The position numbers and the translations under genes were made by a program. Below are positions 16,648-32,000 of a DNA stretch of 32,000 nucleotides, one piece after another. This DNA comes from Desulfocapsa sulfexigens DSM 10523 (lineage in GTDB: Bacteria > Desulfobacterota > Desulfobulbia > Desulfobulbales > Desulfocapsaceae), in NCBI RefSeq assembly GCF_000341395.1, contig NC_020304.1:3330001-3362000 (forward strand), read 5' to 3'. The stretch's first letter is position 1. Every line of letters starts with the position of its first letter. The notes under the pieces were generated by a model. The model made no database searches. It was not told the origin of the DNA and saw only the letters and a list, made by a program, of their open reading frames with translations.

Positions 16648-16686
16648 AATACTATTTTTATACTTTTCTCATTAGGAGAATGATAC

Positions 16687-17148
16687 ATGGCTAAAGAACA
16701 ACCTGCTGTCAATAAAAAACTTGTTGAACTTGCAACTTTCCTTGTCGGTGATGCACTCTGCGGAATGGATATTCTTAAAATCCAAGAAATCAACAAACTG
16801 ATTGACATGACCACCGTACCCCAGGCACCAAACTATGTTCTTGGAATATTAAATCTCCGAGGTCAAATTATTACCAGTATTGATCTCAGCAAAAAACTCG
16901 GACTTGGAGTTACCAATCTTTCCGATGATCCCAGAAATATCATCGTTAACTCAAAAGGTGAGCATATCGGACTGCTTGTAAAAAAGATAAGCGACGTTGT
17001 TCAGGCCGACACAGATAAGTTTGAACCACCGCCCGCTAACATGGGAGGTATTCAGGGAGATTATTTCACCGGGGTTTACAAAACTGTGGACAAATTGATT
17101 GGCATTCTCGATGTGGAGAAGGTTTTGCGGCTTGATGAGAGAAAATAA
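16687..17148 (+). CDS. cheW: Chemotaxis coupling protein CheW
   Basis: 153 aa single CheW domain (FLVGDALCGMDILKIQEI..., GILNLRGQIITSIDL). AGGAGA RBS. Confidence 0.9.
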   Translation: MAKEQPAVNKKLVELATFLVGDALCGMDILKIQEINKLIDMTTVPQAPNYVLGILNLRGQIITSIDLSKKLGLGVTNLSDDPRNIIVNSKGEHIGLLVKKISDVVQADTDKFEPPPANMGGIQGDYFTGVYKTVDKLIGILDVEKVLRLDERK

Positions 17149-18299
17149 TGCTGATAGGTAAGAAGTTACGAGTTTTAGTTGTTGATGATACCATCGTTTA
17201 CCGAAAAGCAGTTTCTGATGTTCTTGCTGAAATCCCAGGTGTTGAAGTCGTAGGCGTTGCCCATAATGGTAAAATTGCCATGTCCAAGGTTGCAACTCTG
17301 AAGCCCGATTTACTCACACTTGATATTGAGATGCCAGAAATGAATGGCATTGAAGTTTTGAGTGCACTGCAAAGCAACTATCCAAGCATTGGTGCTGTAA
17401 TGGTCTCCACCCTGACTTCAGACGGTGGTGTGATGACTATGAAAGCGCTTGAACTTGGAGCTTTTGATTTTATCCTTAAACCAACTGCCAAGAATCCTGC
17501 CGAAAGCAAAAAACAGCTGAAAGACGCACTCACACCAATTATCAACGAATTTAAGAAATCCAAAAACGCACCTTCCCTTTTACGCAATAAGGGACAATTC
17601 ACCAAAACTCCTGGTACCGTTCTCAGAAAACCACTCAAACCCCTTTCAGCAGCACGCCCTGGCCTCAAATCCGCCGACAACAAACCCGACGTCCCTAAAG
17701 GCAAACTTGCTGTAAGAAGAGGTAAATCAGAAATTATTGCCATTGGAATATCAACTGGTGGCCCTAATGCATTGACTCAGATGCTTCCGATGTTACCTGG
17801 GAATCTTGGCGTTCCCATTGTTATTGTCCAGCATATGCCACCAGTATTTACCAAATCCCTTGCCTCAAGCCTGAATGCAAAATGTGCCCTTCTGGTTAAA
17901 GAGGCTGAAGATCGTGAAGATCTTCAAATCAACACCGTTTATATTGCACCTGGCGGAAAACAGATGAAACTGATTGCCAGTGCCGACGGAATGAACAGAC
18001 AAATAAAAATAACCAACGACCCACCCGAAAACTCTTGCAGGCCATCGGCCGATTACCTTTTTAGATCTGTTGGCGATTATTATGTTGGACGAACAACTGC
18101 TGTTATCATGACAGGTATGGGTTCGGACGGTTCCAAAGGGCTGGAGATCTTAAGTCAGAAAGGTGCCACCATAATAGCTCAGAACGAAGACACCTGTGTA
18201 GTTTTTGGGATGCCAAAAAAACCTATCGAATCTGGAATAGCAGACAGAATTGTCCCCTTGAACAAAATTGCAGACGAAATTGTAAAAAGCGTTCGTTAA
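17148..18299 (+). CDS. cheB: Chemotaxis response-regulator protein-glutamate methylesterase CheB
   Basis: REC (VLVVDD...LDIEMPEMNG), a long basic linker and an esterase domain (IGISTGGPNAL, VQHMP, MTGMGSDG). TAATG overlap with cheW. Confidence 0.9.
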   Translation: MLIGKKLRVLVVDDTIVYRKAVSDVLAEIPGVEVVGVAHNGKIAMSKVATLKPDLLTLDIEMPEMNGIEVLSALQSNYPSIGAVMVSTLTSDGGVMTMKALELGAFDFILKPTAKNPAESKKQLKDALTPIINEFKKSKNAPSLLRNKGQFTKTPGTVLRKPLKPLSAARPGLKSADNKPDVPKGKLAVRRGKSEIIAIGISTGGPNALTQMLPMLPGNLGVPIVIVQHMPPVFTKSLASSLNAKCALLVKEAEDREDLQINTVYIAPGGKQMKLIASADGMNRQIKITNDPPENSCRPSADYLFRSVGDYYVGRTTAVIMTGMGSDGSKGLEILSQKGATIIAQNEDTCVVFGMPKKPIESGIADRIVPLNKIADEIVKSVR

Positions 18300-18333
18300 T
18301 TCTACATTAAAAAATGGCTTTCACTACTAGACA

Positions 18334-19176
18334 ATGCTGAAGATTACGCCTGCAGAGCTTAAGATAATATCTCAATATATCCATGAAATATCGGGTATAT
18401 ATCTTGATCAGAGCAAGTCGTATCTCTTTGAGACAAGGCTTTCCTCCATTGCGGAGGAACTTGGCTGTACATCTTACCAGGAGCTCCACACCAAAGCAAA
18501 AAGAGATCCTGCCAAGGTTATTGAGCGTCAGATTATTGATGCCATATCCACTAATGAAACCCTGTTTTTCAGAGATACTGGCCCATTTGAACTTCTCAAA
18601 CATAAAATATTACCAGAGGTCATTGATCTCCGAGCTCCCAGTTCTCCAAGATTAAAAACTAATATTAAAATATGGAGTGCCGCCTCATCCACTGGTCAGG
18701 AACTTTATTCAGTGGCTATGACTATCAAAGATCTTCTCGGCAACCAGATGAACAATTTCAACCTCAAACTTCTTGGCACAGACATTTCAGATAGTGCTGT
18801 CAAACAGGCAAGCTATGGCAAGTACAACAAATTTGAAATTGAACGTGGTCTTCCACGCCAAACACTTCAAAAACATTTCACCTTATTTGGGGATAGCTGG
18901 AAGATCAAAGATGAACTGCGTGCTATGGTTAATTTCCGGAAATTAAATCTTATGCTCCCCTTTGCAGGTCTTGGTAAATTCGACATTATCCTTTGCCGGA
19001 ATGTTGCCATCTATTTTACTCTTGCCGATCGAAAAAAACTCTTCAACAAATTGGCTGACAGTCTTGCTGATGATGGCTATCTGATAATAGGTTCAACCGA
19101 ATCGCTCACTGGTATCTGTCCTCGCTTTGTACCCAAAAGACATTTGCGGGCTATTTTTTACCAGAAAAAAAATTGA
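18334..19176 (+). CDS. cheR: Chemotaxis protein methyltransferase CheR
   Basis: ISTNETLFFRD, IWSAASSTGQELYSVAM and ILCRNVAIYF motifs. 280 aa. Confidence 0.9.
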   Translation: MLKITPAELKIISQYIHEISGIYLDQSKSYLFETRLSSIAEELGCTSYQELHTKAKRDPAKVIERQIIDAISTNETLFFRDTGPFELLKHKILPEVIDLRAPSSPRLKTNIKIWSAASSTGQELYSVAMTIKDLLGNQMNNFNLKLLGTDISDSAVKQASYGKYNKFEIERGLPRQTLQKHFTLFGDSWKIKDELRAMVNFRKLNLMLPFAGLGKFDIILCRNVAIYFTLADRKKLFNKLADSLADDGYLIIGSTESLTGICPRFVPKRHLRAIFYQKKN

Positions 19177-19185
19177 GGTACTGTG

Positions 19186-19758
19186 ATGAACAACCTGACC
19201 ATACTTGTTGTTGACGACGATCCTGTCATTCGAAAACTTCTTGAACAGCGTTTAATCAAAGAGAACTATGAGGTTCTCCTGGCTGAAGATGGGTATGTAG
19301 GAAACGAAATTCTTTCAAACACTCACGTTGATGTGGTACTTACTGATTTGATGATGCCAGGAGATATTGGTGGGATAGAAGTTCTTGAGTTTGCAAAGGG
19401 ACTTGAACGAAATATCGAAGTAATTCTGATAACAGCACACTCATCAGTCGATACCGCTGTTGAAGCTATGAAAAAAGGAGCTTCCGACTATCTTGAAAAA
19501 CCGATCAATTTTACAGAACTTTTTTTAAGACTTGAAAAAATTTCGACCATGCGCAGTCTTCTACGTAGTGCCGAAGACTTGCGCCAGGCAATGGATGTAA
19601 CCGAGACTACTGCCTCAGAAACCATTCAAAACCTGGAAGTGCTGGCTGACGTTCTCCAGAACAAGATTGATTTAATAGACACAATTTTAACAAATGATGG
19701 ATTATCAGCAGATGACAAAGTTTCAGATGCACTGGATGTCCTTCAGGAAATCAATTAA
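19186..19758 (+). CDS. Stand-alone response-regulator receiver with a C-terminal helical extension of about 70 aa
   Basis: ILVVDDDPVIRKLL...VLTDLMMPG...GASDYLEKPI (NtrC-like REC). The ATG at 19186 is preferred over the GTG at 19183. No recognisable output domain. Confidence 0.8.
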   Translation: MNNLTILVVDDDPVIRKLLEQRLIKENYEVLLAEDGYVGNEILSNTHVDVVLTDLMMPGDIGGIEVLEFAKGLERNIEVILITAHSSVDTAVEAMKKGASDYLEKPINFTELFLRLEKISTMRSLLRSAEDLRQAMDVTETTASETIQNLEVLADVLQNKIDLIDTILTNDGLSADDKVSDALDVLQEIN

Positions 19759-19804: not shown

Positions 19805-21262
19805 TCAGTTCTGCTCAATCATCATCACTGGCTGGTTGTATCCTTTTGTTTCCGAGAAATCCACATCATCCGTCAGGGTGTTTTTAAGTTTTGCATCTGT
19901 CAGATCTGCGTCTTTTAAAATTGCTCTATATAAATCGGCTTTTGACAGATCGGCACCACTGAGGTCGGCACCACTGAAGTTCGCCCCCTTCAGATTCGCT
20001 CCTTCGAGGTCAACCCCCTTAAGAATAGCATTGCTGAAGTTTGCCCCCTCCAGATCTGCACCATCAAGGTTTTCGCCACTAAGATCAACACCTGAAAGCT
20101 CACAGGCATAGCAGCTGTTTTGATCAAGAAGCGTTGCAACGTTTTTCATGACTTCACCTGAAGGTTCTTCCTTTGAAAACACACTAAGCACTGTTTCTAC
20201 AATACCGACTTCCTGCCCCTCGGAAACCACTCCTTCATCACTATTCACTTTTTCATTCTTATTATTCTCAGAAACAGCATCAGAGGAAGGAGATGTCACC
20301 ATATCACCTCCTTTCTCAGGTTCCATATCAACAACCGGAGTAGCAATGCTATTATCCTCCGAAATTTTTTCTTTTTCACTTACTGACACAGATGGAGAAG
20401 CATCTCCCTGAATGACATCCTGCTGGACCTCTTCGGTAAAAGCATTTTCAATCTTTTTTTCTTCTTCTACAGCATCACTTTCAGTAAGACCTTTTTCTTC
20501 TTTTATTTCTTGTTCAATTACTTCTTCTGGAACAATTATTACGTCTTCAACCGTCACGTCTTCAATTCGTACTTCCTGAATTGCTGGAGCAGCCTTTGCT
20601 TCCGGAGCTGCTACACTTTGTCTGGGAAGGGTAGCATCCTCATAGGCCAGTGTTATGTCATCTGAAACATCAGGAACATCGGATACATTATCAGAATCAT
20701 TCTGCTCAACACTTATTGGTACAACAGGTGGTGTTTCCTCGAAATCCCTTCTGCTGGGAATGACAATTTCCTCTGTTTCCGGAACGTTCTTTGGTTTCGC
20801 AGTGTCCTCGACATAAACAGTTTCCTTAACATCCTTCAATCCTTTATCACCTGCGTAGGGGCTTGTTTCAATTATTTCACCATCCATTAAAGCACCATAC
20901 ATATATGCCCCTACCATGGATGCCCCAGTCAAATCAGCGCCTCTTAAGTCAATTTCGGCAAGATCCGCACCATTAAATACCGCCTCACGCAAGTCGCAGT
21001 TTTTTAGATTTGCTCCCGAAAGATTAGTTAATGCCATCTGGGCGCGTGACAAATTGGCTCCCTCCAGGTTTGCACCGGAAAGATCGAGTCTATTAAGGTT
21101 GGCACCACTCAAATCACATTGTGGACAACTTCTAGTTTCAAGAAGTTGTTTTTTATTAGCCTGTACAGTTGTGGAGGAAGAAAGCTCTGCGGCAATACCG
21201 GGTACAGAAAATATCGAACACAAAAAGAGAGCCACACAAAAAAATGATTTGAGACCTGACAT
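19805..21262 (-). CDS. Secreted bipartite pentapeptide-repeat protein with a long acidic central linker
   Basis: AGGAG RBS. Signal peptide FFCVALFLCSIFSVPGIAA/E. The N-terminal block CPQCDLSGANLNRLDLSGANLEGANLSRAQ... and C-terminal block CYACELSGVDLSGENLDGADLEGANFSNA... are A(D/N)LxX repeats, separated by about 230 aa rich in E/D/V/S. Confidence 0.85.
   Translation of the reverse strand: MSGLKSFFCVALFLCSIFSVPGIAAELSSSTTVQANKKQLLETRSCPQCDLSGANLNRLDLSGANLEGANLSRAQMALTNLSGANLKNCDLREAVFNGADLAEIDLRGADLTGASMVGAYMYGALMDGEIIETSPYAGDKGLKDVKETVYVEDTAKPKNVPETEEIVIPSRRDFEETPPVVPISVEQNDSDNVSDVPDVSDDITLAYEDATLPRQSVAAPEAKAAPAIQEVRIEDVTVEDVIIVPEEVIEQEIKEEKGLTESDAVEEEKKIENAFTEEVQQDVIQGDASPSVSVSEKEKISEDNSIATPVVDMEPEKGGDMVTSPSSDAVSENNKNEKVNSDEGVVSEGQEVGIVETVLSVFSKEEPSGEVMKNVATLLDQNSCYACELSGVDLSGENLDGADLEGANFSNAILKGVDLEGANLKGANFSGADLSGADLSKADLYRAILKDADLTDAKLKNTLTDDVDFSETKGYNQPVMMIEQN
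19950..19977. repeat. Two exact tandem copies of TCGGCACCACTGA at a 15-nt period (codes SGADL-SGADL on the minus strand)
   Basis: Copies at 19950-19962 and 19965-19977, read directly. This is the nucleotide-level footprint of the pentapeptide repeat. Confidence 0.9.
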
Positions 21263-21560: not shown

Positions 21561-21588
21561 TTGACACTACCGGGATTCGCTGTATTTT
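21561..21588 (+). promoter_or_regulatory. Sigma-70-type promoter candidate for the FeS/cytochrome/NrfD operon
   Basis: TTGACA (21561-21566), 16 nt, TATTTT (21583-21588) with TG just upstream. This implies a leader of about 200 nt before the ATG at 21795. Confidence 0.4.
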
Positions 21589-21600
21589 AGTCGACACTGA

Positions 21601-21625
21601 GTGTTGCAAAAATGTTGCGCAACAC
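21601..21625. promoter_or_regulatory. Composite inverted-repeat element GTGTTGC-N6-GTTGCGCAACAC, a candidate binding site for the local sigma-54 EBP
   Basis: GTGTTGC (21601-21607) and GCAACAC (21619-21625) are reverse complements. It contains the perfect 12-bp palindrome TGTTGCGCAACA (21613-21624). The first 20 nt are 18/20 identical to 27763-27782. Confidence 0.5.
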
Positions 21626-21701
21626 AATTGGGCACACAATTTTACAATGTAATATTAAATACTTAAATGTCACATGTTTTTATATGGCCTTTACGCATAT
21701 G

Positions 21702-21715
21702 AATGAGGCCTCATT
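21702..21715. repeat. Perfect 14-bp palindrome AATGAGGCCTCATT in the operon leader
   Basis: Read directly from the sequence. Confidence 0.9.
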
Positions 21716-21748
21716 TACAATTATAGATTTCCACACAGCTAAACTATC

Positions 21749-21762
21749 GGCTCACGTGAGCC
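21749..21762. repeat. Perfect 14-bp palindrome GGCTCACGTGAGCC, 33 nt upstream of the FeS-protein ATG
   Basis: Read directly from the sequence. Confidence 0.9.
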
Positions 21763-21794
21763 CATCATGTGTTTCAAGTACTTGGAGGAGTAGA

Positions 21795-22559
21795 ATGGAC
21801 ATTAAGAAATTGGAAAAGGAAACAAACGAGGGTGTCGAGACATTACCCTCGGATGAACGTCGTAACTTCCTGAAAATGGGTCTGGCGGTCACCGGAGTTT
21901 TCCTCGGTGGAACCGTACTTTCCCTCACCTCGGTTTCAACAGCCAAAGGAGGAAACAGTGATTCTGTAATACCGGTGGATGGACAATATCCCTACACTAA
22001 ACATTATGGAATGATTATGCGGCAAAACAAATGTGTTGGCTGCGAGAAATGCCTTGATGCATGCAGGGAGACCAACCATGTCCCCAATGAACACGATGCC
22101 TGGCGTACTGACATCCAGGAACGTCTTACTACCATAGATGGTGTTGAGAAACGAGAATTCAGGCCGATCCTCTGCAACCACTGCAATCGCCCCCCCTGCG
22201 TCCGTGTCTGTCCGACCAGAGCAACATACAAAGATCCAGAAACAGGTATTGTTGTGATGGACTACAAAAAATGTATCGGTTGCAAAACCTGTATGGCTGC
22301 CTGTCCATACAATGCCAGATACTTCAGTCATGAGAAGTATGCGATAGACAAGTGCAATTTCTGTCTTGACACCCGCCTTGCTGAAGGCCACAAAGAAACG
22401 GCATGTGCTGCTGCATGTCCTGCAGATGTACGTATTTTCGGTGACATAAAGGACCAAAATACTGAAATATATAAGTTACTGCATGAGCCTGAAAATAAAA
22501 TCTGGGTTATACGACCAGAATGCGGGGCCTTACCTAACGTTTTTTATATGAATGCGTAG
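21795..22559 (+). CDS. Tat-exported 4x[4Fe-4S] ferredoxin-like subunit (NrfC/PsrB/HmcB/DmsB family)
   Basis: GGAGGAG RBS before the ATG at 21795. Twin-arginine signal DERRNFLKMGLAVTGVFLGG. Four cluster motifs: CVGCEKCLDAC, CNHCNRPPCVRVCP, CIGCKTCMAACP and CNFC...CAAACP. The track start at 21612 is an unlikely upstream extension. Confidence 0.88.
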   Translation: MDIKKLEKETNEGVETLPSDERRNFLKMGLAVTGVFLGGTVLSLTSVSTAKGGNSDSVIPVDGQYPYTKHYGMIMRQNKCVGCEKCLDACRETNHVPNEHDAWRTDIQERLTTIDGVEKREFRPILCNHCNRPPCVRVCPTRATYKDPETGIVVMDYKKCIGCKTCMAACPYNARYFSHEKYAIDKCNFCLDTRLAEGHKETACAAACPADVRIFGDIKDQNTEIYKLLHEPENKIWVIRPECGALPNVFYMNA

Positions 22560-22664
22560 GTACCTTACGGCCCAAACAGTCCACTCTCCCATTGAAAATA
22601 GAAACACATTATCATTGTGGGATACTTAACGCATACAACTCAGATTCTAGGAGATTATAACCAA

Positions 22665-23354
22665 ATGAATACACGATTTATTAGCACCGTTGGACTAACT
22701 TTACTGGGTGGAGTTTTCATACTCGCCGGTAATGTTACAGCTGCAGATGAGTATGATGTAAGGGCCTTTGGCCCTAAAAATCCCATCGTCTGGGACACGC
22801 CAACAAAAGTTGTTTTTGACCACCGCACCCATACAGATACGATTGGCCTCGAATGTAGTGCCTGCCATGGTGAAATCTTTGCCATGCAGCGTGGCGTAGC
22901 CCCAAGAACAGGAAAACTGACCATGGCATCACTTGCCGCAGGTCAATTCTGTGGAGCTTGTCATGATGGAGATACCGCATTTGCCACTGATACAAACTGT
23001 ACCGCATGCCATATTCTTCCAGAGGATCCTATCGTCTGGACCAAACCTGTTAAAGCGGTAGTCTTTTATCACAAAGCTCATATAGAAGATTTTGGACTTG
23101 AGTGCGATTCCTGCCATGACGACGCCTTTTCCATGAAAGCTGGTGTCGCAGAGCAATCTCCAAATTTCACAATGAAATCACTCTATGAAGGTCAATACTG
23201 TGGCAAATGTCATGACGGTGAAACAGCCTTTGCCTCAAACACCCTCTGTAACACCTGTCACATTGGAGTTAAAGGGTATGACCGACTGATGGGGATAGAG
23301 CCACATCCTCATACCCAGAGTCATGCGCACGAGAATCAAAATGGTGGTCATTAA
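22665..23354 (+). CDS. Periplasmic hexahaem c-type cytochrome built from two tandem c7/c3-type trihaem domains
   Basis: AGGAG RBS. Signal peptide FISTVGLTLLGGVFILAGNVTA/AD. Six CXXCH motifs (CSACH, CGACH, CTACH, CDSCH, CGKCH, CNTCH) arranged as two homologous units of about 90 aa. His-rich tail EPHPHTQSHAHENQNGGH. Confidence 0.88.
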   Translation: MNTRFISTVGLTLLGGVFILAGNVTAADEYDVRAFGPKNPIVWDTPTKVVFDHRTHTDTIGLECSACHGEIFAMQRGVAPRTGKLTMASLAAGQFCGACHDGDTAFATDTNCTACHILPEDPIVWTKPVKAVVFYHKAHIEDFGLECDSCHDDAFSMKAGVAEQSPNFTMKSLYEGQYCGKCHDGETAFASNTLCNTCHIGVKGYDRLMGIEPHPHTQSHAHENQNGGH

Positions 23355-23453
23355 TTGTATCAGTTTGTTTTCACCAGTTAATGACAGACAACAAAATAAT
23401 ATTTGAAATGCTCAGGCACAGTTCCTGATAAAACAGTATTGCAGGAGATTAAA

Positions 23454-24647
23454 ATGGCGAACAGTTCAGTGACAGATATTTTTGCCCAGACGCAGGATAC
23501 CCGTCTGGCGACTCCCGGGATAAACCGGGCTACGATTTTCTTTCTTATCATTATCGTACTTGGCCTTGGATGCGGTGTTTCATCCTTTATTTTTGGTCAT
23601 GAAAATATGTACAATTACACCCGTGACGTTCCATGGGGGTTGTTGATTTCAACCTATGCCTTCTGGGCAATCACTTCTACCGGTCTCTGTATATATGCTG
23701 CGATTTCCCATCTTTTTGGCGGAACCCGTATGGCTATCGTCAGCAATAGAATGGTATGGATGTCCATTATCTGTATCCTCGGTGCCTTTGCCACCATTGG
23801 TGTTGAAATCGCCAGTCCTCACAGAATGATTATCTATAATATTCTCTCCCCCAACCCAACTTCAAATATCTGGTGGATGGGAACACTCTACGGTATGGCA
23901 GTCGGTTGCATGATAGTAGAATTCTTTGGAATCGTGACGGGCCTTGCACGTATTGCCGTAATTCTTGGTACCATCGGTGCTGTGGCCGAGGTCCTTGCCA
24001 ATAGTTGTCTTGGTGGTGTATTTGCAACCCTTCCTGCCAGGCCTTACTGGTATGGCGGTCAACTTCCCATCTATTTCCTCACCGCTGCATTCCTTTCAGG
24101 CGCAGCAGCCACCGTCCTCTTTAACCATCTGGCTTACAAGGTTCGAGGTATAGAAATGAGTGAAGCTGTTAAAGACGGAGTGCGGAGTGCCGGTAAAGCT
24201 ATGACTCTTGTACTGGTACTTTATTCAGTTGCCACATTCTGGAGATTGATAAGTTACTATGTTGGCGGTGCAGAACTTGGTCGTATTGCAGCGGATGCGT
24301 TAATTTCTGGCCCACTTTCAATTAACTTCTGGGTTATTGAGGTTTGTGTAGGACTCCTTATCCCTCTGATGCTCATCATCCTTTCCAGACTCACCAATAT
24401 CGGAATGATGGCCCTGGCTGGTTTTCTTATTCTCGTAGGACAATTTGTGGCTCGCTATGACCTTGTTGCAGGCGGTCTTCTTGTTCCTGGTACCCTTGGC
24501 TGGGACAATGTTCCAACCTATTTTGACTACGTTCCTTCATTTTTCGAAATGGCTGTCGTTCTGGGAAGTGTTGGAGTAGTCTCTTTTGGATTCCTGATGG
24601 GTGAGAGAGTTTTTGGTAAGATTTTTGACCAGAAAGAACATCACTGA
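23454..24647 (+). CDS. NrfD/PsrC/HmcC-family polytopic quinone-interacting membrane subunit
   Basis: About 397 aa with roughly 8-10 hydrophobic helices and the usual position after an NrfC-like FeS gene. The ATG at 23454 (CAGGAG RBS) is preferred to the TTG at 23403. Confidence 0.75.
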   Translation: MANSSVTDIFAQTQDTRLATPGINRATIFFLIIIVLGLGCGVSSFIFGHENMYNYTRDVPWGLLISTYAFWAITSTGLCIYAAISHLFGGTRMAIVSNRMVWMSIICILGAFATIGVEIASPHRMIIYNILSPNPTSNIWWMGTLYGMAVGCMIVEFFGIVTGLARIAVILGTIGAVAEVLANSCLGGVFATLPARPYWYGGQLPIYFLTAAFLSGAAATVLFNHLAYKVRGIEMSEAVKDGVRSAGKAMTLVLVLYSVATFWRLISYYVGGAELGRIAADALISGPLSINFWVIEVCVGLLIPLMLIILSRLTNIGMMALAGFLILVGQFVARYDLVAGGLLVPGTLGWDNVPTYFDYVPSFFEMAVVLGSVGVVSFGFLMGERVFGKIFDQKEHH

Positions 24648-24784: not shown

Positions 24785-25936
24785 ATGACAAAAAACACTC
24801 CCAAAAAAAAACTGTCCTCCCCTGTTGAACAAAACGGTACATCCTTAGATTCACATATTGCAGGCGGTGGTAATGAACTGTTTCAGGCCATTCAGGATCC
24901 TGTTTTTATTGTCACTCCAGACGGTGTAATAATCGATGCAAATAATGCCGCTCTCAAGGCTGCACGAAAAACCCAAAAAGAAATTGTTGGTAAGGGAATC
25001 TGTACTATTATCCACGGAGGAAGCTTACCTCATATCAAATGCCCCCTTGAGGAGTTCCTCTTAACCACATCCACTTCTCGTGTTGAAGAAACCACCCTTC
25101 CAGGACTTGCAGGAGAGTACCTGCTCACTATTTCACCAATCAAAAACAAAAACGGCACTGTCTGTAAAATACTACTTGTTGCAAGGGAATTGACCAGTGA
25201 CGAAATGAGAAAAGCCGATTCCCTGCGAACTGCACAGATGGCAGCTATCGGCGAACTGGCAGCAGGAGTTGCCCATGAGGTGAACAACCCTATTACCGGA
25301 ATTATCAACTTTGCCCAATTGCTACTTGATGATAGTGAAAAGAATTCACTGCAGGCTGAGCTTCTGGAAAGAATTGTCAACGAAGGGGAGCGAATTGCCT
25401 TGATCATCAAGAACCTTCTCTCATTCGCCCGCGAAAGCGAAAACAACAACGAACTGATTGACATTGAACAGGTCATACGAGACAGCCTTTCACTTGTTGC
25501 ACATCAATTTAAGAAAGATGGTATTAAAATAAAAACAGAATTTTCTTCAAAAGCCTATCGAATTTATGGAAACTTCACTCAATTACAACAGGTAATCCTG
25601 AACTTACTCAGCAATGCCCGTTTTTCCCTCAACGATCGATATCCAAATTCCTCCCCAGAAAAAACCATAGAGATAAGCTGCTACCCTTTTCTAAAAAAAG
25701 AAGGAGAAACTGTTACTCAAATCACAATCAAAGATTCAGGAACCGGTATCCCGCAGGGAATTTTGAATCGCATCTTTGACCCATTCTTCACCACCAAACC
25801 ATCTGGTAAAGGTACTGGACTCGGTCTCAGCATCAGTTATGGAATCATTCAAAATCACGGTGGCTTTATCAAAGTTGATTCAATTATGCATCAATACACA
25901 AAAATGATCATCGAACTGCCCACATCTGGAATCTAA
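24785..25936 (+). CDS. Cytoplasmic PAS-domain sensor histidine kinase
   Basis: No TM segment. PAS ([26 protein letters not shown]...), H-box [23 protein letters not shown]-box LLSNARFS, G-boxes DSGTGI and [11 protein letters not shown]. Confidence 0.88.
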
Positions 25937-27763
25937 ATGGACGATCAAACTCATCAGGAAAAAGATACTCGCATTCTTATTGTGGATGATGAAGCCAGTA
26001 TTCGTCTCACCTTTGAAATGTTTCTTGCAAGAGAAGGCTACGGACCCATCACCACTGCTGCCACTTTCTCCGAAGCAATTGAGGTGATAAACAGCAACAC
26101 ATTTGACCTGATAATCAGCGATATTGTTCTTGAAGGTGAACGGGGAACTGACCTTCTTCGTAAAATTCGTGAGGCAGGAATCGAATGCCCTGTGGTAATG
26201 GTCACCGGATTCCCTAATCTTGATTCCGCAGCAGAGGCTGTCAGACACGGAGCTTTTGATTATATTTCAAAACCAGTCAACAAAGAAACATTACTCAGAT
26301 TTGTACGTCAGGCTTTAAGCCATTGGCAACTCGAACAGGAGAAAAAGAATCTCCTTCAGGAAAATGAAAAATTCAAACGCTACCTGGAAGCAATTTTCAG
26401 TTCCGTTCGCGATGCAATCATTACTATAGATAATGATATGAATATCGTGCAGTTGAATGATACGGCCAAGCGATGGCTGCTTTTCAGTGATTCTGCTGAC
26501 GACATCAATTTAAGGACTAGCAATCGCCTCGACAGTTATAAGAATGAAATGGGCAAAGCCTGCCTTCAGGACGCCAAACAGGTACTAGCAAATAAAATAG
26601 AAGTCCGTGAACACCAGGTCGAGTGTCGCAAACCCGATGGCAACATACGAATCATAAGTTTAAATGCAGCCCCGCTTGAAGATGGGCAGGATGAGTTTAA
26701 CGGTGTTGTTATCGTAGCTCGTGATATCACTCTACCGGAACCAGAGACGGGACCTCATACTCGAAATAAATTCCATGGATATGTTGGTTCAAGTCAGGTA
26801 ATGCAACAGGTATACAATCTTATTGAAAATGTGGGTAAAGTTGATACTGCAGTGCTGATAACTGGAGAATCGGGTACTGGAAAAGAGCTTGCTGCAGAAG
26901 CTTTGCATGCTGAAAGTACCAGGCGCGACATGCCACTTGTCAAAGTTGATTGTGCAGCAATGCCTGAGGAGCTACTGGAAAGCGAACTTTTTGGTCATAT
27001 TAAAGGAGCCTTCACTGGCGCAGAAAAAAATCGAGAAGGGAGATTGTTACAGGCACACAATGGAACACTTTTTCTTGATGAAATTGGTGACGTATCGCCA
27101 CGGATGCAATTACGGCTCCTGAGATTTCTTCAAGAAAAAACTTTTACTCCAGTTGGCCAGGATAATCCCATTGAAGTTGATGTTCGTATCATTGCGGCTA
27201 CCAATGTTAATTTCACAGAAAAAGTAAAGGATGGCAGTTTTCGTGAAGATTTATACTACCGCCTAAAAGTTGTTGAGATTAAACTACCACCGCTTCGAGA
27301 CAGAAAAGGTGGTATCCCAATACTTGTGCACCACTTTCTTTCCATGTTTCGTGAAAAACTGAAGCGCAATATCCATGGAATATCCGATCAAGCCATGGAC
27401 GCATTAACTAAATATTCCTGGCCTGGAAATGTCAGAGAGCTCAGACATGTTATTGAGAGAGCTTGTGTCTTATGTGAAGGTCCAACAATTTCCCTTGAAC
27501 ACTTTGCAGAAGAAATACAAAGGCAGCCCTTGCATCCCCAACAAACACCTCCCACCTCCCTACCACAGGAAGGAAGAGCTGCACTCCCGCCCTACATAAG
27601 TGAACGCGATGAAATCATAGATATACTCAAGAGAGCACGGGGTAACAAATCAAAAGCCGCACGTATGCTAAATATAGATCGTTCAACTCTCTATCGTAAG
27701 ATGCAACGTATCGGCATTGCCAAAGACATTGCCAAAGCACCTGCCCCTAAAAACACCCCATAG
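25937..27763 (+). CDS. Sigma-54-dependent response regulator (REC-PAS-AAA+ EBP-Fis-type HTH)
   Basis: REC (ILIVDDE...LIISDIVLEG), a central PAS, Walker A GESGTGKE, an intact GAFTGA loop, Walker B LFLDEIG, and HTH AARMLNIDRSTLYRKM. It starts immediately after the kinase stop. Confidence 0.92.
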   Translation: MDDQTHQEKDTRILIVDDEASIRLTFEMFLAREGYGPITTAATFSEAIEVINSNTFDLIISDIVLEGERGTDLLRKIREAGIECPVVMVTGFPNLDSAAEAVRHGAFDYISKPVNKETLLRFVRQALSHWQLEQEKKNLLQENEKFKRYLEAIFSSVRDAIITIDNDMNIVQLNDTAKRWLLFSDSADDINLRTSNRLDSYKNEMGKACLQDAKQVLANKIEVREHQVECRKPDGNIRIISLNAAPLEDGQDEFNGVVIVARDITLPEPETGPHTRNKFHGYVGSSQVMQQVYNLIENVGKVDTAVLITGESGTGKELAAEALHAESTRRDMPLVKVDCAAMPEELLESELFGHIKGAFTGAEKNREGRLLQAHNGTLFLDEIGDVSPRMQLRLLRFLQEKTFTPVGQDNPIEVDVRIIAATNVNFTEKVKDGSFREDLYYRLKVVEIKLPPLRDRKGGIPILVHHFLSMFREKLKRNIHGISDQAMDALTKYSWPGNVRELRHVIERACVLCEGPTISLEHFAEEIQRQPLHPQQTPPTSLPQEGRAALPPYISERDEIIDILKRARGNKSKAARMLNIDRSTLYRKMQRIGIAKDIAKAPAPKNTP

Positions 27764-27888
27764 TGTTGCAATAACGTTGCGCGCACGCACGATAGCAACA
27801 CTTTCGCAACACTACCAGCAAAAACGCAACACTCTCGCAACACACCTGCTCTTTCCCCTGTTCATACAAATCCCCCCTCATGCAACAC
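27763..27888. promoter_or_regulatory. Upstream activator array: GTGTTGC / GTTGCGC half-sites followed by five direct GCAACAC copies
   Basis: GTGTTGC 27763-27769 (overlaps the last base of the EBP stop codon) and GTTGCGC 27776-27782. GCAACAC at 27795, 27806, 27826, 27837 and 27882, with 11-bp spacing inside each of the two pairs. The array lies about 80-200 bp upstream of the sigma-54 promoter. Confidence 0.65.
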
Positions 27889-27963
27889 ATCACCCACTCT
27901 AACAAGTAACAAAACCGGGCCTCAAGACTGATCGTTGTTTTATCTGGAGACAAAAAAGCATTC

Positions 27964-27980
27964 TGGCACGCAGCGTGCAT
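27964..27980 (+). promoter_or_regulatory. Sigma-54 (RpoN) promoter TGGCACG-N4-GTGCAT
   Basis: TGGCACGCAGCGTGCAT matches the TGGCACG-N4-TTGCW consensus with exact GG/GC spacing (GG 27965-27966, GC 27977-27978). It lies about 65 nt upstream of the first small ORF. Confidence 0.8.
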
Positions 27981-28043
27981 TGTTAATGTTACAAAGCAAC
28001 TAGATTTAAAAAATCATAAAAAAACCATACAGGGAGAAACAAA

Positions 28044-28250
28044 ATGAAAAACACAACTACTATCACAAGAGAAAGAAGCACAACCAATGAAAACACAGCT
28101 CTTGAACTTAATAAGGTTGGTGTTCACGCTGTAACTATCTCTTCTGCAATTATTGGTTGCTGGGCCGTTGCCTGTCTCGCCTCCGGTGTGATCAGCAGTG
28201 GAGGACCTGCAGGTCTTGTCTCTAACTTCATTTCCGCCTTCACTGGATAA
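28044..28250 (+). CDS. Small membrane protein, paralogue 1 of 4 (68 aa), unknown family
   Basis: GGGAGA RBS. Polar T/N/E/R-rich N-terminus, then ...LELNKVGVHAVTISSAIIGCWAVACLASGVISSGGPAGLVSNFISAFTG*. Confidence 0.75.
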   Translation: MKNTTTITRERSTTNENTALELNKVGVHAVTISSAIIGCWAVACLASGVISSGGPAGLVSNFISAFTG

Positions 28251-28292
28251 ACGATAGCCACTCATAACAACCATAGCGCCAGGAGCTTAAAA

Positions 28293-28505
28293 ATGAACTC
28301 TTCTCACTCCGCAGAAACAACCAGTACCCAAGCGAAAAGCCAAGCCAATGCTACCAGCGAAATATCAAAAGTAAGTGTTGGGTTTATAGCCCTCACAGCT
28401 ACAATTATCGGCTGCTGGGCAACGGCAAGTCTTTTTGCAGGTACTATAAGTAGTGGCGGACCGATAGGGCTCATACGAAATCTCATTACAGCCATTACTG
28501 GTTAA
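28293..28505 (+). CDS. Small membrane protein, paralogue 2 of 4 (70 aa)
   Basis: AGGAG RBS. ...SEISKVSVGFIALTATIIGCWATASLFAGTISSGGPIGLIRNLITAITG*. By manual alignment 22/34 identical to paralogue 1 over the C-terminal part. Confidence 0.75.
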   Translation: MNSSHSAETTSTQAKSQANATSEISKVSVGFIALTATIIGCWATASLFAGTISSGGPIGLIRNLITAITG

Positions 28506-28550
28506 TATAGGTCTAAATTAAAATTCCTGACACTATAAGAGGATCATCTC

Positions 28551-28775
28551 ATGGAAGACAAAGCAATCACAAAAGAAATCACTAAAACTACTGCTACAGT
28601 TCATGAAATTGAACACACCGATAGCGAATTATATAAAGTTGGCATGTACACAACAGCAGCATTTGCTGCAATTGTCGGAATATGGGGTCTGGTATGCCTT
28701 TCAAGTGCCATCCTTGAGAATGGTGCCCCTGTTGAAATGTTGAAAAATCTGTACCACGCCATTACCGGCGCCTAA
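28551..28775 (+). CDS. Small membrane protein, paralogue 3 of 4 (74 aa)
   Basis: AGAGGA RBS. ...TDSELYKVGMYTTAAFAAIVGIWGLVCLSSAILENGAPVEMLKNLYHAITGA*. Confidence 0.75.
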   Translation: MEDKAITKEITKTTATVHEIEHTDSELYKVGMYTTAAFAAIVGIWGLVCLSSAILENGAPVEMLKNLYHAITGA

Positions 28776-28847
28776 TGACCTCTTCAACGAATTTTTTTAA
28801 TAATGTGCAGCAAAACACCTATAAAAATATTATAAAGGAATATCACT

Positions 28848-29063
28848 ATGAGCAACGTAGATACCAAACAAACTGTCAAAACAACCGTACACGAAGCCGT
28901 TAACACTGACAGCGAACTCTACAAAGTCGGAACTGTTGTAACCGCAGCCTTTGCTGGTGGGATTGGACTCTGGGCTGTTATCTGTCTCTCTTCAGCCTTC
29001 ATGTCAGAAGGCCCCGTGGCTCTGTTAAAAAGCCTTTTTGGAGCGGTATCCGGAACAATGTAG
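28848..29063 (+). CDS. Small membrane protein, paralogue 4 of 4 (71 aa)
   Basis: AAGGAA RBS. ...TDSELYKVGTVVTAAFAGGIGLWAVICLSSAFMSEGPVALLKSLFGAVSGTM*. By manual alignment about 29/51 identical to paralogue 3. Confidence 0.75.
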   Translation: MSNVDTKQTVKTTVHEAVNTDSELYKVGTVVTAAFAGGIGLWAVICLSSAFMSEGPVALLKSLFGAVSGTM

Positions 29064-29116
29064 CATGTGTATGTAAAAATATGCTAAGCTCTCTTAGCTT
29101 CAAAGATATTTTAAAA

Positions 29117-29148
29117 GCCAGGGATATTTGTATCCCTGGCTTTTTTTT
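29117..29148 (+). terminator. Strong rho-independent terminator closing the small-protein operon
   Basis: GCCAGGGATA-TTTG-TATCCCTGGC (perfect 10-bp stem) followed by T8. A smaller hairpin GCTAAG-CTCT-CTTAGC lies at 29083-29098. Confidence 0.88.
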
Positions 29149-29176
29149 GACTTATACCTGCATATACCTGTATAAT
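29147..29176 (+). promoter_or_regulatory. Sigma-70-type promoter candidate for the ftsH paralogue (TTGACT-18 nt-TATAAT)
   Basis: TTGACT at 29147-29152 and a perfect TATAAT at 29171-29176. The spacer contains the direct repeat TATACCTG x2. Confidence 0.5.
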
Positions 29177-29253: not shown

Positions 29254-31125
29254 ATGGCGATATTGATTCGAAACCTGTTTGTCTTTTTTCTTTTTACTGT
29301 AATCCTTGGCGGAAGCTATGGCCTATGGATACTCGAACACCAATTGCGCACAGTATCTTATAGCGAATTTCGTTATTGCCTTGCTAATCATGATTTGAAA
29401 TCCACCACCTTTACCGGCAACAAAGTTATCGCTACCCATAAGAGTGGTGACAGTTATGAGACTACAGTCCCAAATGCTGAAAAACTTATTTCTGAGCTGC
29501 AGGATAAAAATATCCAGATTATTTTCAAAAAAGATCGATCGGAGCAGATTTTCCAAGCTATTGCAATTATCTATGTCATTCTTTTGCTTCTCACTGTTAT
29601 AATCTCCTTGAGCAGGAAAAAGAAAACAGAGGAGGAAGAAAATAAGTTTGCCTCAGACAAACTTATTCTCCCTGATGGGAGCCATAAACAAGTGACTTTC
29701 GACGATGTAGCAGGTATCCCCGAGGCACTTGAGGAGCTTCAGGAGGTTGTCAATTTCCTGAAAGATCCTGAACAATATAGTCAGATTGGAGCGGTGAGTC
29801 CAAAAGGCGTGTTACTTCAAGGACCTCCTGGAACCGGGAAAACGCTTCTTGCCAGAGCCATTGCTGGGGAGGCAAAGGTTCCTTTTTACAGTTTCAGCGG
29901 TTCTGATTTTGTAGAAATGTTTGTTGGAGTAGGAGCATCAAGGGTTCGTGATATTTTCAAGGAAGCCAAGAGCAATGCACCATGTATTATTTTTATTGAT
30001 GAAATAGATGCAGTTGGTGGTAGCCGTGCTGGAGGAAGCACGGCCAGTGGCCAGGACGAAAGAAGCCAGACCTTGAATGCACTCCTGGTCGAAATGGATG
30101 GATTTTCGTCTACTGACACCATTATAGTGCTTGCAGCAACCAATAGACCAGATATCCTGGATCCAGCCCTGAGACGTCCAGGTCGTTTTGACAGACAGGT
30201 CAACATCCTGCCACCTGACATCAAGGGCAGAAAACGAATCCTTAAGGTTCACAGTGCCAAAGTTGCTCTTGCCCCTGAAATCAACCTCGACAAAATTGCT
30301 CATATGGTTCCCGGTTTTACTGGTGCAGAGCTGGCAAATCTTGTCAACGAAGCGGCCCTGATGGCTGCAAGAGAGCAAAAGAAAGTTGTTAGCCATCAAC
30401 ATTTTGAGCAGGCCAGAGATCGCATACTTATGGGGGTTGAACGAAAGGGGAGAATAATGTCCGACGCTGATCGAGAGATTCTTGCCTACCATGAGGCAGG
30501 TCACGCAATTGTTGCCAAAACCCTACCCGACGCTGACCCAATCCACAAAATAACCATCATCCCTCGTGGCCAGGCACTTGGCCAGACGCAGCAATTATCC
30601 ATTAACGATAGAAGCAGTTATAACTTCAACTACCTGCGCAGTAGAATTGTTATTTTGATGGGTGGCAGAGCAGCAGAAGAGATTGCATTTGGACAACGTA
30701 CTACAGGCGCCCAGGGGGACATTGTTCAAGCCACTGAAATTGCGACCAACATGATCTGCAAGTGGGGAATGAGCGATGTAATAGGTCCGCAGGCCATGGT
30801 AATAGATAACGCAGGATTCCTTGGAGGCTCATCGCACCGTGTTGAAATGAGTGACAGGACATCGGAAGCAATTGACAAGGAGATAAAAAATCTCCTGGCG
30901 TCCTGCCACGATGAAGCAGTAGTAATCATCAAAGAACAATACTACCTTCTCAAACAGCTTGCAGCCATACTCCTTGAGGTTGAAACCCTGGATGATGAGG
31001 AGTTCAACATCATCATGTCCTGTCAATTTAAGGAAAAAATTGCTGCAGGAATAAAAGAAACTCACGAGTGTGAAACCTGCCCTGCAGCTGACAGATGTAT
31101 TCATTCAAAGCTGAAGAAGGACTAG
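29254..31125 (+). CDS. ftsH: ATP-dependent zinc metalloprotease FtsH (probable paralogue)
   Basis: Two N-terminal TM helices; Walker A GPPGTGKT; pore loop FVEMFVGVGASR; Walker B IIFIDEIDAV; SRH ATNRPDILDPALRRPGRFDR; HEAGH zinc site. Unusual Cys-rich tail THECETCPAADRCIH. Confidence 0.9.
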   Translation: MAILIRNLFVFFLFTVILGGSYGLWILEHQLRTVSYSEFRYCLANHDLKSTTFTGNKVIATHKSGDSYETTVPNAEKLISELQDKNIQIIFKKDRSEQIFQAIAIIYVILLLLTVIISLSRKKKTEEEENKFASDKLILPDGSHKQVTFDDVAGIPEALEELQEVVNFLKDPEQYSQIGAVSPKGVLLQGPPGTGKTLLARAIAGEAKVPFYSFSGSDFVEMFVGVGASRVRDIFKEAKSNAPCIIFIDEIDAVGGSRAGGSTASGQDERSQTLNALLVEMDGFSSTDTIIVLAATNRPDILDPALRRPGRFDRQVNILPPDIKGRKRILKVHSAKVALAPEINLDKIAHMVPGFTGAELANLVNEAALMAAREQKKVVSHQHFEQARDRILMGVERKGRIMSDADREILAYHEAGHAIVAKTLPDADPIHKITIIPRGQALGQTQQLSINDRSSYNFNYLRSRIVILMGGRAAEEIAFGQRTTGAQGDIVQATEIATNMICKWGMSDVIGPQAMVIDNAGFLGGSSHRVEMSDRTSEAIDKEIKNLLASCHDEAVVIIKEQYYLLKQLAAILLEVETLDDEEFNIIMSCQFKEKIAAGIKETHECETCPAADRCIHSKLKKD

Positions 31126-31135
31126 GATAAAGAAA

Positions 31136-32000
31136 ATGCGGTCCTTAAAAAAAATGAGCTACCTCGTTTTCATGGGGGTAGCCCTTCTCCTCCTGTTGGT
31201 GATCATCTTCATTGTTCGCCAGTATCAACTGTCAGAACAATACGACACCATCATAACACAAAGCGAGAAGATGGTCTTTCAACTGCTGACGATACGGGAA
31301 CAACTCACCACTTCCCTTATCAAACAGGATTGGAAAGCCATCGCCACAACTGCAAACCAACTTGAAGATCTCAACTCTTCCATCGCAAGACTTCAGGAAA
31401 ATCCATTGATCCCAGGTGAGTTCAGACTTGGAATGGCACATCAAGTAGATGTCTCCGGTATAGCTATCGCTTCAAGAGAAATACTTTCAAGTTCTGACAA
31501 GCTTACAAACAGTCTTGTACTACAAGACAAGATGCGCAGTCTCACAGAATATCTTCTTCAGTTTGACCGTATTATAGGAAGTCAAATGCGTGCAAAAGTT
31601 GTGGCTTTCCAGACGGTAATGATAGGCGCACTTGGTGTGATCATTTGCCTAATAAGTTTTTCTCTTATTCTGCTCTACAAAAAGGCTTTAATCCCCCTCC
31701 TCCACCTTAAAAGACAAACCACGGACAACGATGTCATCAGCACTGGATTTCTGTATGACAAAAGCACCTGCTCAGAAATTACCATTTTTGTTGATTCTGT
31801 AAACTCACTACTCGATCAAATGAAAAACAGATCAGCAACTCAGGAACTTCCCCACACACTCAGCGATGAACTTGCTTCTATTATCAATGAAAGCAATAAT
31901 ATATCAAATGGAATCATCAATTATGCTCAATTGTTAAAGGATTCCTACCGTGAGGTTGAGATGGGAAATGAGGAGATGAAAATCCTCCAGAATATTATCG
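31136..32000 (+). CDS. Membrane sensor with a histidine-kinase-like DHp region; partial, runs off the right edge; the H-box His appears replaced by Asn
   Basis: Not in the ORF track because it is open-ended. I translated it manually and found no stop from the ATG at 31136 to 32000. MRSLKKMSYLVFMGVALLLLLVIIFIV (TM1), a periplasmic helical region of about 130 aa, TM2 VMIGALGVIICLISFSLILL, then DELASIINESNNISNGIINYAQLL, which aligns with [24 protein letters not shown] of the kinase at 24785. Confidence 0.6.
   Translation, partial: MRSLKKMSYLVFMGVALLLLLVIIFIVRQYQLSEQYDTIITQSEKMVFQLLTIREQLTTSLIKQDWKAIATTANQLEDLNSSIARLQENPLIPGEFRLGMAHQVDVSGIAIASREILSSSDKLTNSLVLQDKMRSLTEYLLQFDRIIGSQMRAKVVAFQTVMIGALGVIICLISFSLILLYKKALIPLLHLKRQTTDNDVISTGFLYDKSTCSEITIFVDSVNSLLDQMKNRSATQELPHTLSDELASIINESNNISNGIINYAQLLKDSYREVEMGNEEMKILQNII

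Follow-up and report, generated by a model that had tools for sequence, protein, structure and literature searches.

In enteric bacteria, NtrC (NRI) acts at glnAp2/glnAp1 from sites that also overlap a sigma-70 promoter, which NtrC represses. NtrC is a response-regulator enhancer-binding protein (EBP) that a soluble PAS kinase phosphorylates, and it acts on a -24/-12 promoter from a distance of more than 100 bp upstream, where several sites on one helix face promote oligomerisation and DNA looping. Here we describe a region of this kind in a stretch of 32,000 nt from Desulfocapsa sulfexigens DSM 10523 (NC_020304.1, GCF_000341395.1, forward strand, 3,330,001-3,362,000), called the window below, in which all positions are counted unless another locus is named. 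With good confidence, we consider positions 27763-27979 to be the control region of a sigma-54-dependent operon, where the EBP encoded next to it would act on six hexamers in a classical two-component activation.

The Desulfocapsa locus would share the above features with NtrC, and its second site, at 21601-21625 by TTGACA-N16-TATTTT, looks analogous to the NtrC sites at the repressed sigma-70 promoter. On the other hand, the Desulfocapsa sites are six hexamers of 6-7 bp, mostly direct at 11 bp, whereas NtrC sites are 17-bp dyads. The Desulfocapsa EBP does not reach the NtrC equivalog cut-off and carries an additional PAS domain, placed between REC and AAA+; the predicted targets are small membrane proteins, not nitrogen-assimilation genes. 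The envelope-stress sigma-54 regulons ZraSR/ZraP and PspF/pspABCDE are also similar, as an EBP lies beside a sigma-54 promoter driving small envelope or membrane proteins. However, the small proteins of Desulfocapsa have no similarity to ZraP or the Psp proteins and match no family, ZraR sites are inverted repeats, and the EBP is below the ZraR equivalog cut-off as well. A link of the Desulfocapsa module to envelope stress would be speculation.

Nla28 of Myxococcus xanthus is an NtrC-like EBP that likely recognizes a short direct-repeat site, with two to five half-sites clustered upstream of sigma-54 promoters, and its binding was tested by electrophoretic mobility shift assay and mutation (PMC9765219). 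The Desulfocapsa locus has the same combination of an NtrC-like EBP and clustered direct-repeat half-sites upstream of sigma-54 promoters, but the Nla28 half-site is CT(C/G)CG(C/G)AG instead of GCAACAC, its spacing is variable instead of strictly 11 bp, its regulon and lineage are different, and the Desulfocapsa sites are predicted from sequence. In Desulfovibrio vulgaris, EBP regulons were examined by comparative genomics, with EBP genes co-localised with operons that have conserved sigma-54 promoters and upstream motifs (PMC4641369). The reasoning is of the same kind as ours, although that organism belongs to another order than Desulfobulbales and the motif is another one, as GCAAC and GTTGC are absent from the text of PMC4641369. 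Sigma-54 regulation has been reported for the class Desulfobulbia (PMC12316311). The control region described here is new as an instance of a thoroughly known kind, and it leaves the paradigm unchanged.

The putative elements of the control region are as follows.

27763-27769, minus strand: half-site 1, GTGTTGC, the reverse complement of GCAACAC; the reverse-orientation pair is conserved in orthologs
27775-27780, minus strand: half-site 2, CGTTGC with one mismatch, 11 bp from half-site 1
27795-27801, plus strand: half-site 3, GCAACAC
27806-27812, plus strand: half-site 4, GCAACAC, 11 bp from half-site 3
27826-27832, plus strand: half-site 5, GCAACAC
27837-27843, plus strand: half-site 6, GCAACAC, 11 bp from half-site 5
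27844-27880, plus strand: tract rich in pyrimidines, conserved in composition but not in sequence, between enhancer and promoter
27882-27888, plus strand: fifth GCAACAC copy, not conserved and probably outside the enhancer
27964-27979, plus strand: sigma-54 (-24/-12) promoter TGGCACGcagcGTGCA, predicted start at about 27990

An earlier note on this DNA had placed GCAACAC at 27795, 27806, 27826, 27837 and 27882, with GTGTTGC and GTTGCGC upstream, and all of them are found at these positions. It described four phased copies plus two loose half-sites. The 11-bp pairs stand, but the reverse half-sites, with core hexamers TGTTGC at 27764 and CGTTGC at 27775, are also 11 bp apart, making six phased sites. 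GTTGCGC can also be read at 27776-27782, CGTTGC at 27775-27780 being the better reading. The array consists of three pairs, reverse, forward and forward, each at 11-bp spacing; therefore, all six hexamers would be on one helix face. In terms of symmetry, each pair is a direct repeat, half-sites 1-4 form an inverted arrangement, and the third pair has no inverted partner.

The six half-sites extend from -200 to -127 relative to TGGCAC, and the array from about -147 to -226 relative to the predicted start site, instead of the 80-200 bp upstream given before. The array had also been said to begin inside the stop codon of the activator gene. GTGTTGC at 27763 does overlap the TAG at 27761-27763, but the core TGTTGC begins at 27764, the first base beyond the stop. 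The overlap appears incidental and of no significance, because the offset from stop to first site varies in orthologs from 0 to >150 bp. The copy at 27882, previously listed as a fifth copy, is probably a chance occurrence and not part of the enhancer, because no ortholog has a counterpart at that position.

The 7-mer GCAACAC occurs 11 times on both strands of the window, compared with 3.6 expected, and none of 100 shuffles of the window reached 11. Six of the 11 copies fall within 126 bp, whereas in 400 first-order Markov simulations, which were used for clusters and pairs, the maximum was two copies in any 130-bp stretch. When hexamer pairs were searched for as GCAACA-N5-GCAACA with up to one mismatch on both strands, the window had them only at 21602 (minus), 27764 (minus), 27795 (plus) and 27826 (plus). 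Exact pairs occur three times in the window, while one arose in 4 of the 400 simulations.

The promoter sequence TGGCACGCAGCGTGCA at 27964-27979 reads TGGCACG-N4-GTGCA, with GG at 27965-66, GC at 27977-78 and 10 nt between them. Sigma-54 sites were scored at the 12 specified positions of the consensus TGGCACG-N4-TTGCA / TGGCAC-N5-TTGCW, with GG and GC separated by 10 nt. The site scores 11/12 against TGGCACG-N4-TTGCA with GG and GC kept, and no other site in the window keeps both with 11 or more matches, confirming the near-consensus promoter with invariant GG and GC at exact spacing that had been proposed. A match this good is found somewhere in about 10% of random 32-kb sequences. The match alone is not significant; what makes the case for a predicted site of this sort is its position, orientation and conservation. 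It is intergenic and correctly oriented toward a downstream gene with a ribosome-binding site, as the predicted start at about 27990 falls 54 nt before the ATG at 28044, and GGAGA is 8 nt upstream of this ATG. The repeats and the promoter together are far beyond chance.

Orthologous loci were collected by a scan with one genome per species, which gave 26 loci from Desulfocapsa and Desulfocapsaceae metagenome-assembled genomes, with EBP identities of 65-87%. Gene order is kept across them: iron-sulfur (FeS) protein, cytochrome c, NrfD, histidine kinase, EBP, two to six copies of the small genes, and ftsH. Among about 20 Desulfocapsaceae orthologs, the sequence that follows the EBP stop can hardly be aligned, and yet the promoter and the hexamers persist in this spacer. 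A GG-N10-GC site resembling TGGCA(C/T)G-N4-xTGCA is present in 20 of 21 orthologous spacers with scores of 8-11/12, at a constant distance from the repeat array. Between the EBP stop and the promoter, GCAACA is enriched 18-fold and TGTTGC 10-fold over the rest of the loci. Nearly every locus has the same layout, namely TGTTGC-N5-TGTTGC, a gap, GCAACA-N5-GCAACA, about 14-15 bp, and GCAACA-N5-GCAACA, and the array, which occupies about 125-200 bp upstream of the promoter, ends about 125-140 bp before TGGCAC in promoter-anchored loci.

Half-sites on the same strand are spaced by 11 bp in 24 cases across the loci, by 20-21 bp in nine and by 31 bp in four; 42 bp is a further common spacing, and 20-21, 31 and 42 bp are near whole helical turns. 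From the reverse group to the forward group, the gap is 8-9 bp in 4 cases and 19-20 bp in 11, the two classes differing by one helical turn (11 bp). Relative to the promoter, forward sites have a period of about 10.5 bp (R ~0.47, n = 48), which is only suggestive of helical phasing because the loci are related. Across the 26 loci (about 290 kb), 53 matches of the pair motif are in the EBP spacer, 17 upstream of the FeS gene and 17 elsewhere, about half of these last belonging to second modules or the edges of arrays. The pair motif hardly occurs outside these regulatory regions, and none was found in eight distant EBP loci used as a negative control. Sequence and comparison show that the elements exist far beyond chance and are conserved, phased and mutually associated.

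The module recurs independently in some relatives. In four loci (L008, L010, L011 and L020), a terminator interrupts the small genes, and beyond it four TGTTGC and two or three GCAAC sites make up a second cluster. About 130-170 bp farther on, another sigma-54 promoter, of the form TGGCA(T/C)-N5-CTGCA, precedes more small-protein genes. These second enhancer and promoter modules are at the following positions.

L008, about 9076-9270
L010, about 8507-8700
L011, about 9105-9300
L020, about 9128-9300

Another locus, L018 (850-1300), has a paralogous EBP, whose helix-turn-helix (HTH) reads GIARSTLYRQMQRY compared with NIDRSTLYRKMQRI in the EBP of the window. Downstream of this EBP come GGGACAC/GTGTCCC/GCGACAC repeats, with 11-bp spacing between two of them, next an IHF-like site and the sigma-54 promoter TGGCACGcattaTGCT, and then two genes for small proteins and a second ftsH (59% identical). 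This module lies upstream of the kinase-EBP pair, in the position that the FeS operon has in the other loci. The same predicted layout is thus present with a different hexamer alongside a different HTH.

Two genes precede the array.

24785-25936, plus strand: soluble PAS histidine kinase with Pfam PAS_4, HisKA and HATPase_c, presumed cognate sensor of the EBP
25937-27763, plus strand: NtrC-family response-regulator EBP with REC-PAS-AAA+-Fis HTH architecture, presumed ligand of the repeats

The EBP reading frame encodes 608 amino acids, with Pfam domains Response_reg, PAS, Sigma54_activat, AAA_lid_14 and HTH_8, and its translation shows the motifs GAFTGA, Walker A (GESGTGKE) and Walker B (LFLDEIG). 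By sequence, it has all domains and motifs of an active sigma-54 activator, and such an intact EBP with GAFTGA implies rpoN and presumably sigma-54 dependence. Its scores against the NCBIfam equivalog cut-offs are 403.9 vs 714 bits for AtoC, 402.8 vs 558.6 for NtrC and 376.3 vs 760 for ZraR. It is best classified as an unnamed NtrC-family member, below the cut-off of every named equivalog, and its best relatives of solved structure are ZraR (E = 7.8e-88), NtrC1 and LuxO. The HTH segment IDRSTLYRK is invariant across orthologs, whereas the preceding proline-rich linker is long and hypervariable. In the kinase, the H-box GVAHEVNNP is readable, and the kinase is syntenic in all orthologs. The earlier proposal of the EBP as the candidate ligand of the repeats is supported in silico by adjacency, by co-conservation and by the EBP being the sole DNA-binding regulator within the conserved gene cluster.

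A second operator, at 21601-21625, and the genes driven by the sigma-54 promoter were not covered by the earlier note. The features around the second operator are the following.

21561-21588, plus strand: sigma-70-type promoter TTGACA-N16-TATTTT of the FeS/cytochrome c7/NrfD operon, conserved
21601-21625, plus strand: second operator GTGTTGCaaaaaTGTTGCGCAACAC, matching 27763-27782 at 18/20 positions
21795-24647, plus strand: FeS/cytochrome c7/NrfD operon, assigned by Pfam domains

The second operator lies at about +6 to +30 from the predicted start of the sigma-70-type promoter. The two are conserved together at the same relative position in 16 orthologs, and they move with the FeS operon where it is inverted (L017 and L015). 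The operon encodes a Tat-signal 4Fe-4S protein, a multihaem cytochrome c7-type protein and an NrfD-type membrane protein; the true start of the FeS gene is the ATG at 21795, with a Tat-like RRNFLK motif, and a conserved terminator after NrfD ends the operon. A sigma-54 promoter downstream of the second operator (21626-21795) was considered and rejected, as no GG-N10-GC is conserved there and the conserved TTTTGGCC block does not fit. Since no conserved sigma-54 site follows 21601-21625, we read it as an operator at the sigma-70-type promoter, not as a second enhancer. By analogy with NtrC, it is a probable repressive site for the FeS/cytochrome c/NrfD operon.

The proposed mechanism would proceed in the following steps. 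First, the soluble PAS histidine kinase (24785-25936) would phosphorylate the adjacent EBP (25937-27763). Second, the activated EBP would assemble on the six GCAACA-type hexamers, at 27764/27775 in reverse and at 27795/27806 and 27826/27837 in forward orientation. Third, the DNA would loop, so that the ATPase ring could remodel the sigma-54 RNA polymerase at TGGCACG-N4-GTGCA (27964-27979). Transcription would then start near 27990, cross the four small genes (28044-29063) and stop at the terminator at 29113-29150. The EBP would probably also bind the near-identical operator at 21601-21625 and repress the FeS/cytochrome c/NrfD operon, like NtrC at glnAp1, because this operator is just downstream of the sigma-70-type promoter. 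Binding of the EBP to the hexamers, sigma-54 use, the direction in which the second site regulates and the sensed signal are what we infer from the elements described above.

Several points weigh against this mechanism. NtrC-family Fis-type HTH dimers usually bind inverted repeats, unlike four of the six sites here, which are direct repeats. The inner half-sites are 2 or 13-14 bp apart in the enhancer but 0 or 11 bp apart in the second operator, so that one inverted-repeat spacing cannot account for both, and direct repeats of 7 bp with a 4-bp spacer are a hallmark of OmpR/PhoB-type regulators. An IHF site, WATCAANNNNTTR, was not found between enhancer and promoter in the window at up to one mismatch, while six orthologs have an IHF-like WATCAANNNNTTR site at -51/-52, compared with a background rate of 13% per 120 nt. 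The invariance of the HTH segment proves little, as RSTLYRK is common in the EBP family. The orthologous loci are mutually related, so that counts across them are of non-independent events. Locus tags UWK_03018-03027 are not mentioned in any paper of the literature searched. As for the direct repeats, the long proline-rich linker before the HTH would allow flexible placement of the HTH on them.

Two linked readings go further, and jointly they seem doubtful, though conceivable. If the first were true, the six hexamers would template one EBP hexamer, with one Fis-type HTH on each, unlike the dimer-on-dyad model of NtrC; such an arrangement would be possible because the linker of the EBP is long and proline-rich. 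If the second were also true, there would be reciprocal control of tandem small membrane proteins beside a dedicated FtsH versus the flanking NrfD-type respiratory module, with small proteins specific to Desulfocapsaceae, in a lineage specialised in sulfur disproportionation.

Among the rivals to activation by the adjacent EBP, the one that survives best accepts the sigma-54 promoter as real but has the hexamers bound by a regulator encoded elsewhere, either OmpR/PhoB-type or another EBP. The four head-to-tail sites, 7 bp with a 4-bp spacer, have the geometry of a pho box and not of an NtrC dyad, the link between EBP and motif consists of adjacency and co-conservation, and this bacterial group has many other EBPs. 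On the other hand, sigma-54 promoters depend on an EBP with an enhancer, and the hexamer repeat is the only conserved upstream motif. All orthologs have this motif after their EBP gene, the conserved cluster has no other regulator gene, and where a paralogous EBP has a different HTH, as in L018, the hexamer is different in the same layout. Direct-repeat sites are also documented for an NtrC-like EBP (PMC9765219). We consider this rival unlikely.

It is also conceivable that the inverted part of the array (27763-27812) acts as RNA, in the form of a 3′ hairpin by which the EBP transcript is terminated or stabilised, alone or besides protein binding. The RNA folds as a two-tier hairpin of -20.6 kcal/mol (z-score -2.2), and the reverse-then-forward arrangement is conserved. 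However, no U-run follows the stem, so that an intrinsic terminator made of the inverted half-sites was rejected, and it is the hexamer sequence itself that is conserved, not merely complementarity. The third pair (27826/27837) is direct and outside the hairpin, and the same hexamers are found where no gene ends, at 21601-21625 and upstream of the second sigma-54 promoters. Moreover, the gap between the arms shifts by 11 bp between lineages, which keeps the helical face but would be irrelevant to a hairpin. A hairpin role is therefore quite improbable. That the repeats and the promoter are products of chance or of non-functional slippage is hardly credible: a sigma-54 match of this quality does turn up in about a tenth of random sequences of this length and the copy at 27882 does look like chance, but the six clustered copies exceed anything simulated, and about 20 diverged orthologs keep both elements, in an unchanged relative position and phasing.

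If the EBP acts as proposed, the locus would provide a testable regulon for an uncharacterised two-component EBP in Desulfocapsa, a genus studied for elemental-sulfur disproportionation, and the motif (c/t)GCAACAc at 11-bp spacing could be used for whole-genome target scans. It would link elements so far uncharacterised, namely the tandem small membrane proteins, a dedicated ftsH paralog and two NrfD/cytochrome c modules. For the sigma-54 field, it would offer a clean, phylogenetically footprinted enhancer of direct repeats in helical phase, with a probable second, repressive site.

Between enhancer and promoter (27844-27960 and orthologs), composition is conserved without sequence conservation. 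The mean pyrimidine fraction of the top strand is 0.66-0.74 at -130 to -90 in 19 loci, compared with a background of 0.49, and an AT-rich tract is present at -80 to -60 across loci. A 'terminator-like' match, GCACGcagCGTGC at 27966-78, only reflects the partly palindromic promoter sequence and is not conserved in its own right.

The genes and the terminator downstream of the promoter are listed below.

28044-28250, 28293-28505, 28551-28775 and 28848-29063, plus strand: four tandem paralogous small-protein genes, 68-74 amino acids with one hydrophobic segment
29113-29150, plus strand: intrinsic terminator with a 14-bp stem and a T-run, ending the sigma-54 unit before ftsH

The small proteins, which are identical to UWK_03023, UWK_03024 and UWK_03026, are built of a hydrophilic N-terminus, (S/T)EL.KVG, a hydrophobic segment with conserved W and C, and a C-terminal GGP...ITG. 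Their consensus (P0001-P0120) is ...TDSELYKVG-[hydrophobic segment with W and CLSS]-GGPV.L.K.LF.AITG. Every ortholog has two to six copies after the promoter, always beside the ftsH paralog. When the four paralogs were searched against Pfam and NCBIfam at E <= 0.01, no family was matched. Among 1.84 billion representatives, 391 homologs were found in 239 clusters at 50% identity, all of them 'hypothetical' and none with a Pfam domain. A 539-amino-acid match with six repeats in this search, P0149, was rejected as an unrelated repeat protein. The predicted small membrane proteins thus constitute an undescribed family, and the tight linkage of this family to the ftsH paralog and the NrfD/cytochrome modules in a sulfur-disproportionating lineage is the most interesting loose end.

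The hairpin at 29113-29150 is conserved in nearly all orthologs, and the predicted sigma-54 transcription unit comprises the four small genes only. Inclusion of ftsH in the sigma-54 operon was ruled out by the conserved terminator and the promoter TTGACT-N18-TATAAT between them. The ftsH paralog (29254-31125), which has this promoter as its own, is intact with Walker A and HEAGH present. It has a Cys-rich tail, HECETCPAADRCIH, which is also present in the one ortholog read (L002) and may be an extension that senses metal or redox state.

A membrane protein of about 301 amino acids follows ftsH, at 31136-32000 in the window, where it runs off the end, and at 11430-12335 in L002. Its segment ASIINESNNISNGIINYAQLLKD resembles the H-box/DHp helix of the soluble kinase, but Asn replaces the phospho-accepting His. 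It has no Pfam match and no ATPase domain, and the similarity to the kinase is weak, with E = 2e-4 for one comparison. Judging from its sequence, this protein may act on the soluble kinase as a membrane partner or modulator. In most orthologs, this His-less protein is followed by a second pair of a multihaem cytochrome c and an NrfD-type protein, about 1.3 kb downstream of ftsH and beyond the window end, so that the regulated genes are flanked on both sides by NrfD-type modules.

Because of the conserved terminator after NrfD, co-transcription of the kinase and EBP genes with the FeS operon was considered unlikely. The FeS operon has a leader of some 170 nt (21626-21794) that is conserved among about 16 orthologs. 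Within it are an invariant palindrome, AATGAGGCCTCATT (about 21702-21715), a hairpin that is CCGG...CCGG in orthologs and ATAG...CTAT in the window, and another hairpin, TTGAACACA...TGTGTTTCAA, just before the Shine-Dalgarno sequence, with a compensatory variant in L012. This leader had no match in Rfam, nor did the entire window at the gathering threshold. It could be an RNA leader or attenuator, or the operator of a second regulator.

In the literature on Desulfocapsa and sigma-54 and in a 2026 disproportionation paper, nothing relevant was found, and searching the motif letters as text gave an uninformative result. Farther upstream in the window is a complete chemotaxis cluster (13768-19758) with a CheA-CheW-REC hybrid, CheW, CheB, CheR and a CheY-like protein, adjoined by a pentapeptide-repeat protein of 485 amino acids (19805-21262, minus strand). 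Both appear unrelated to the enhancer and promoter.

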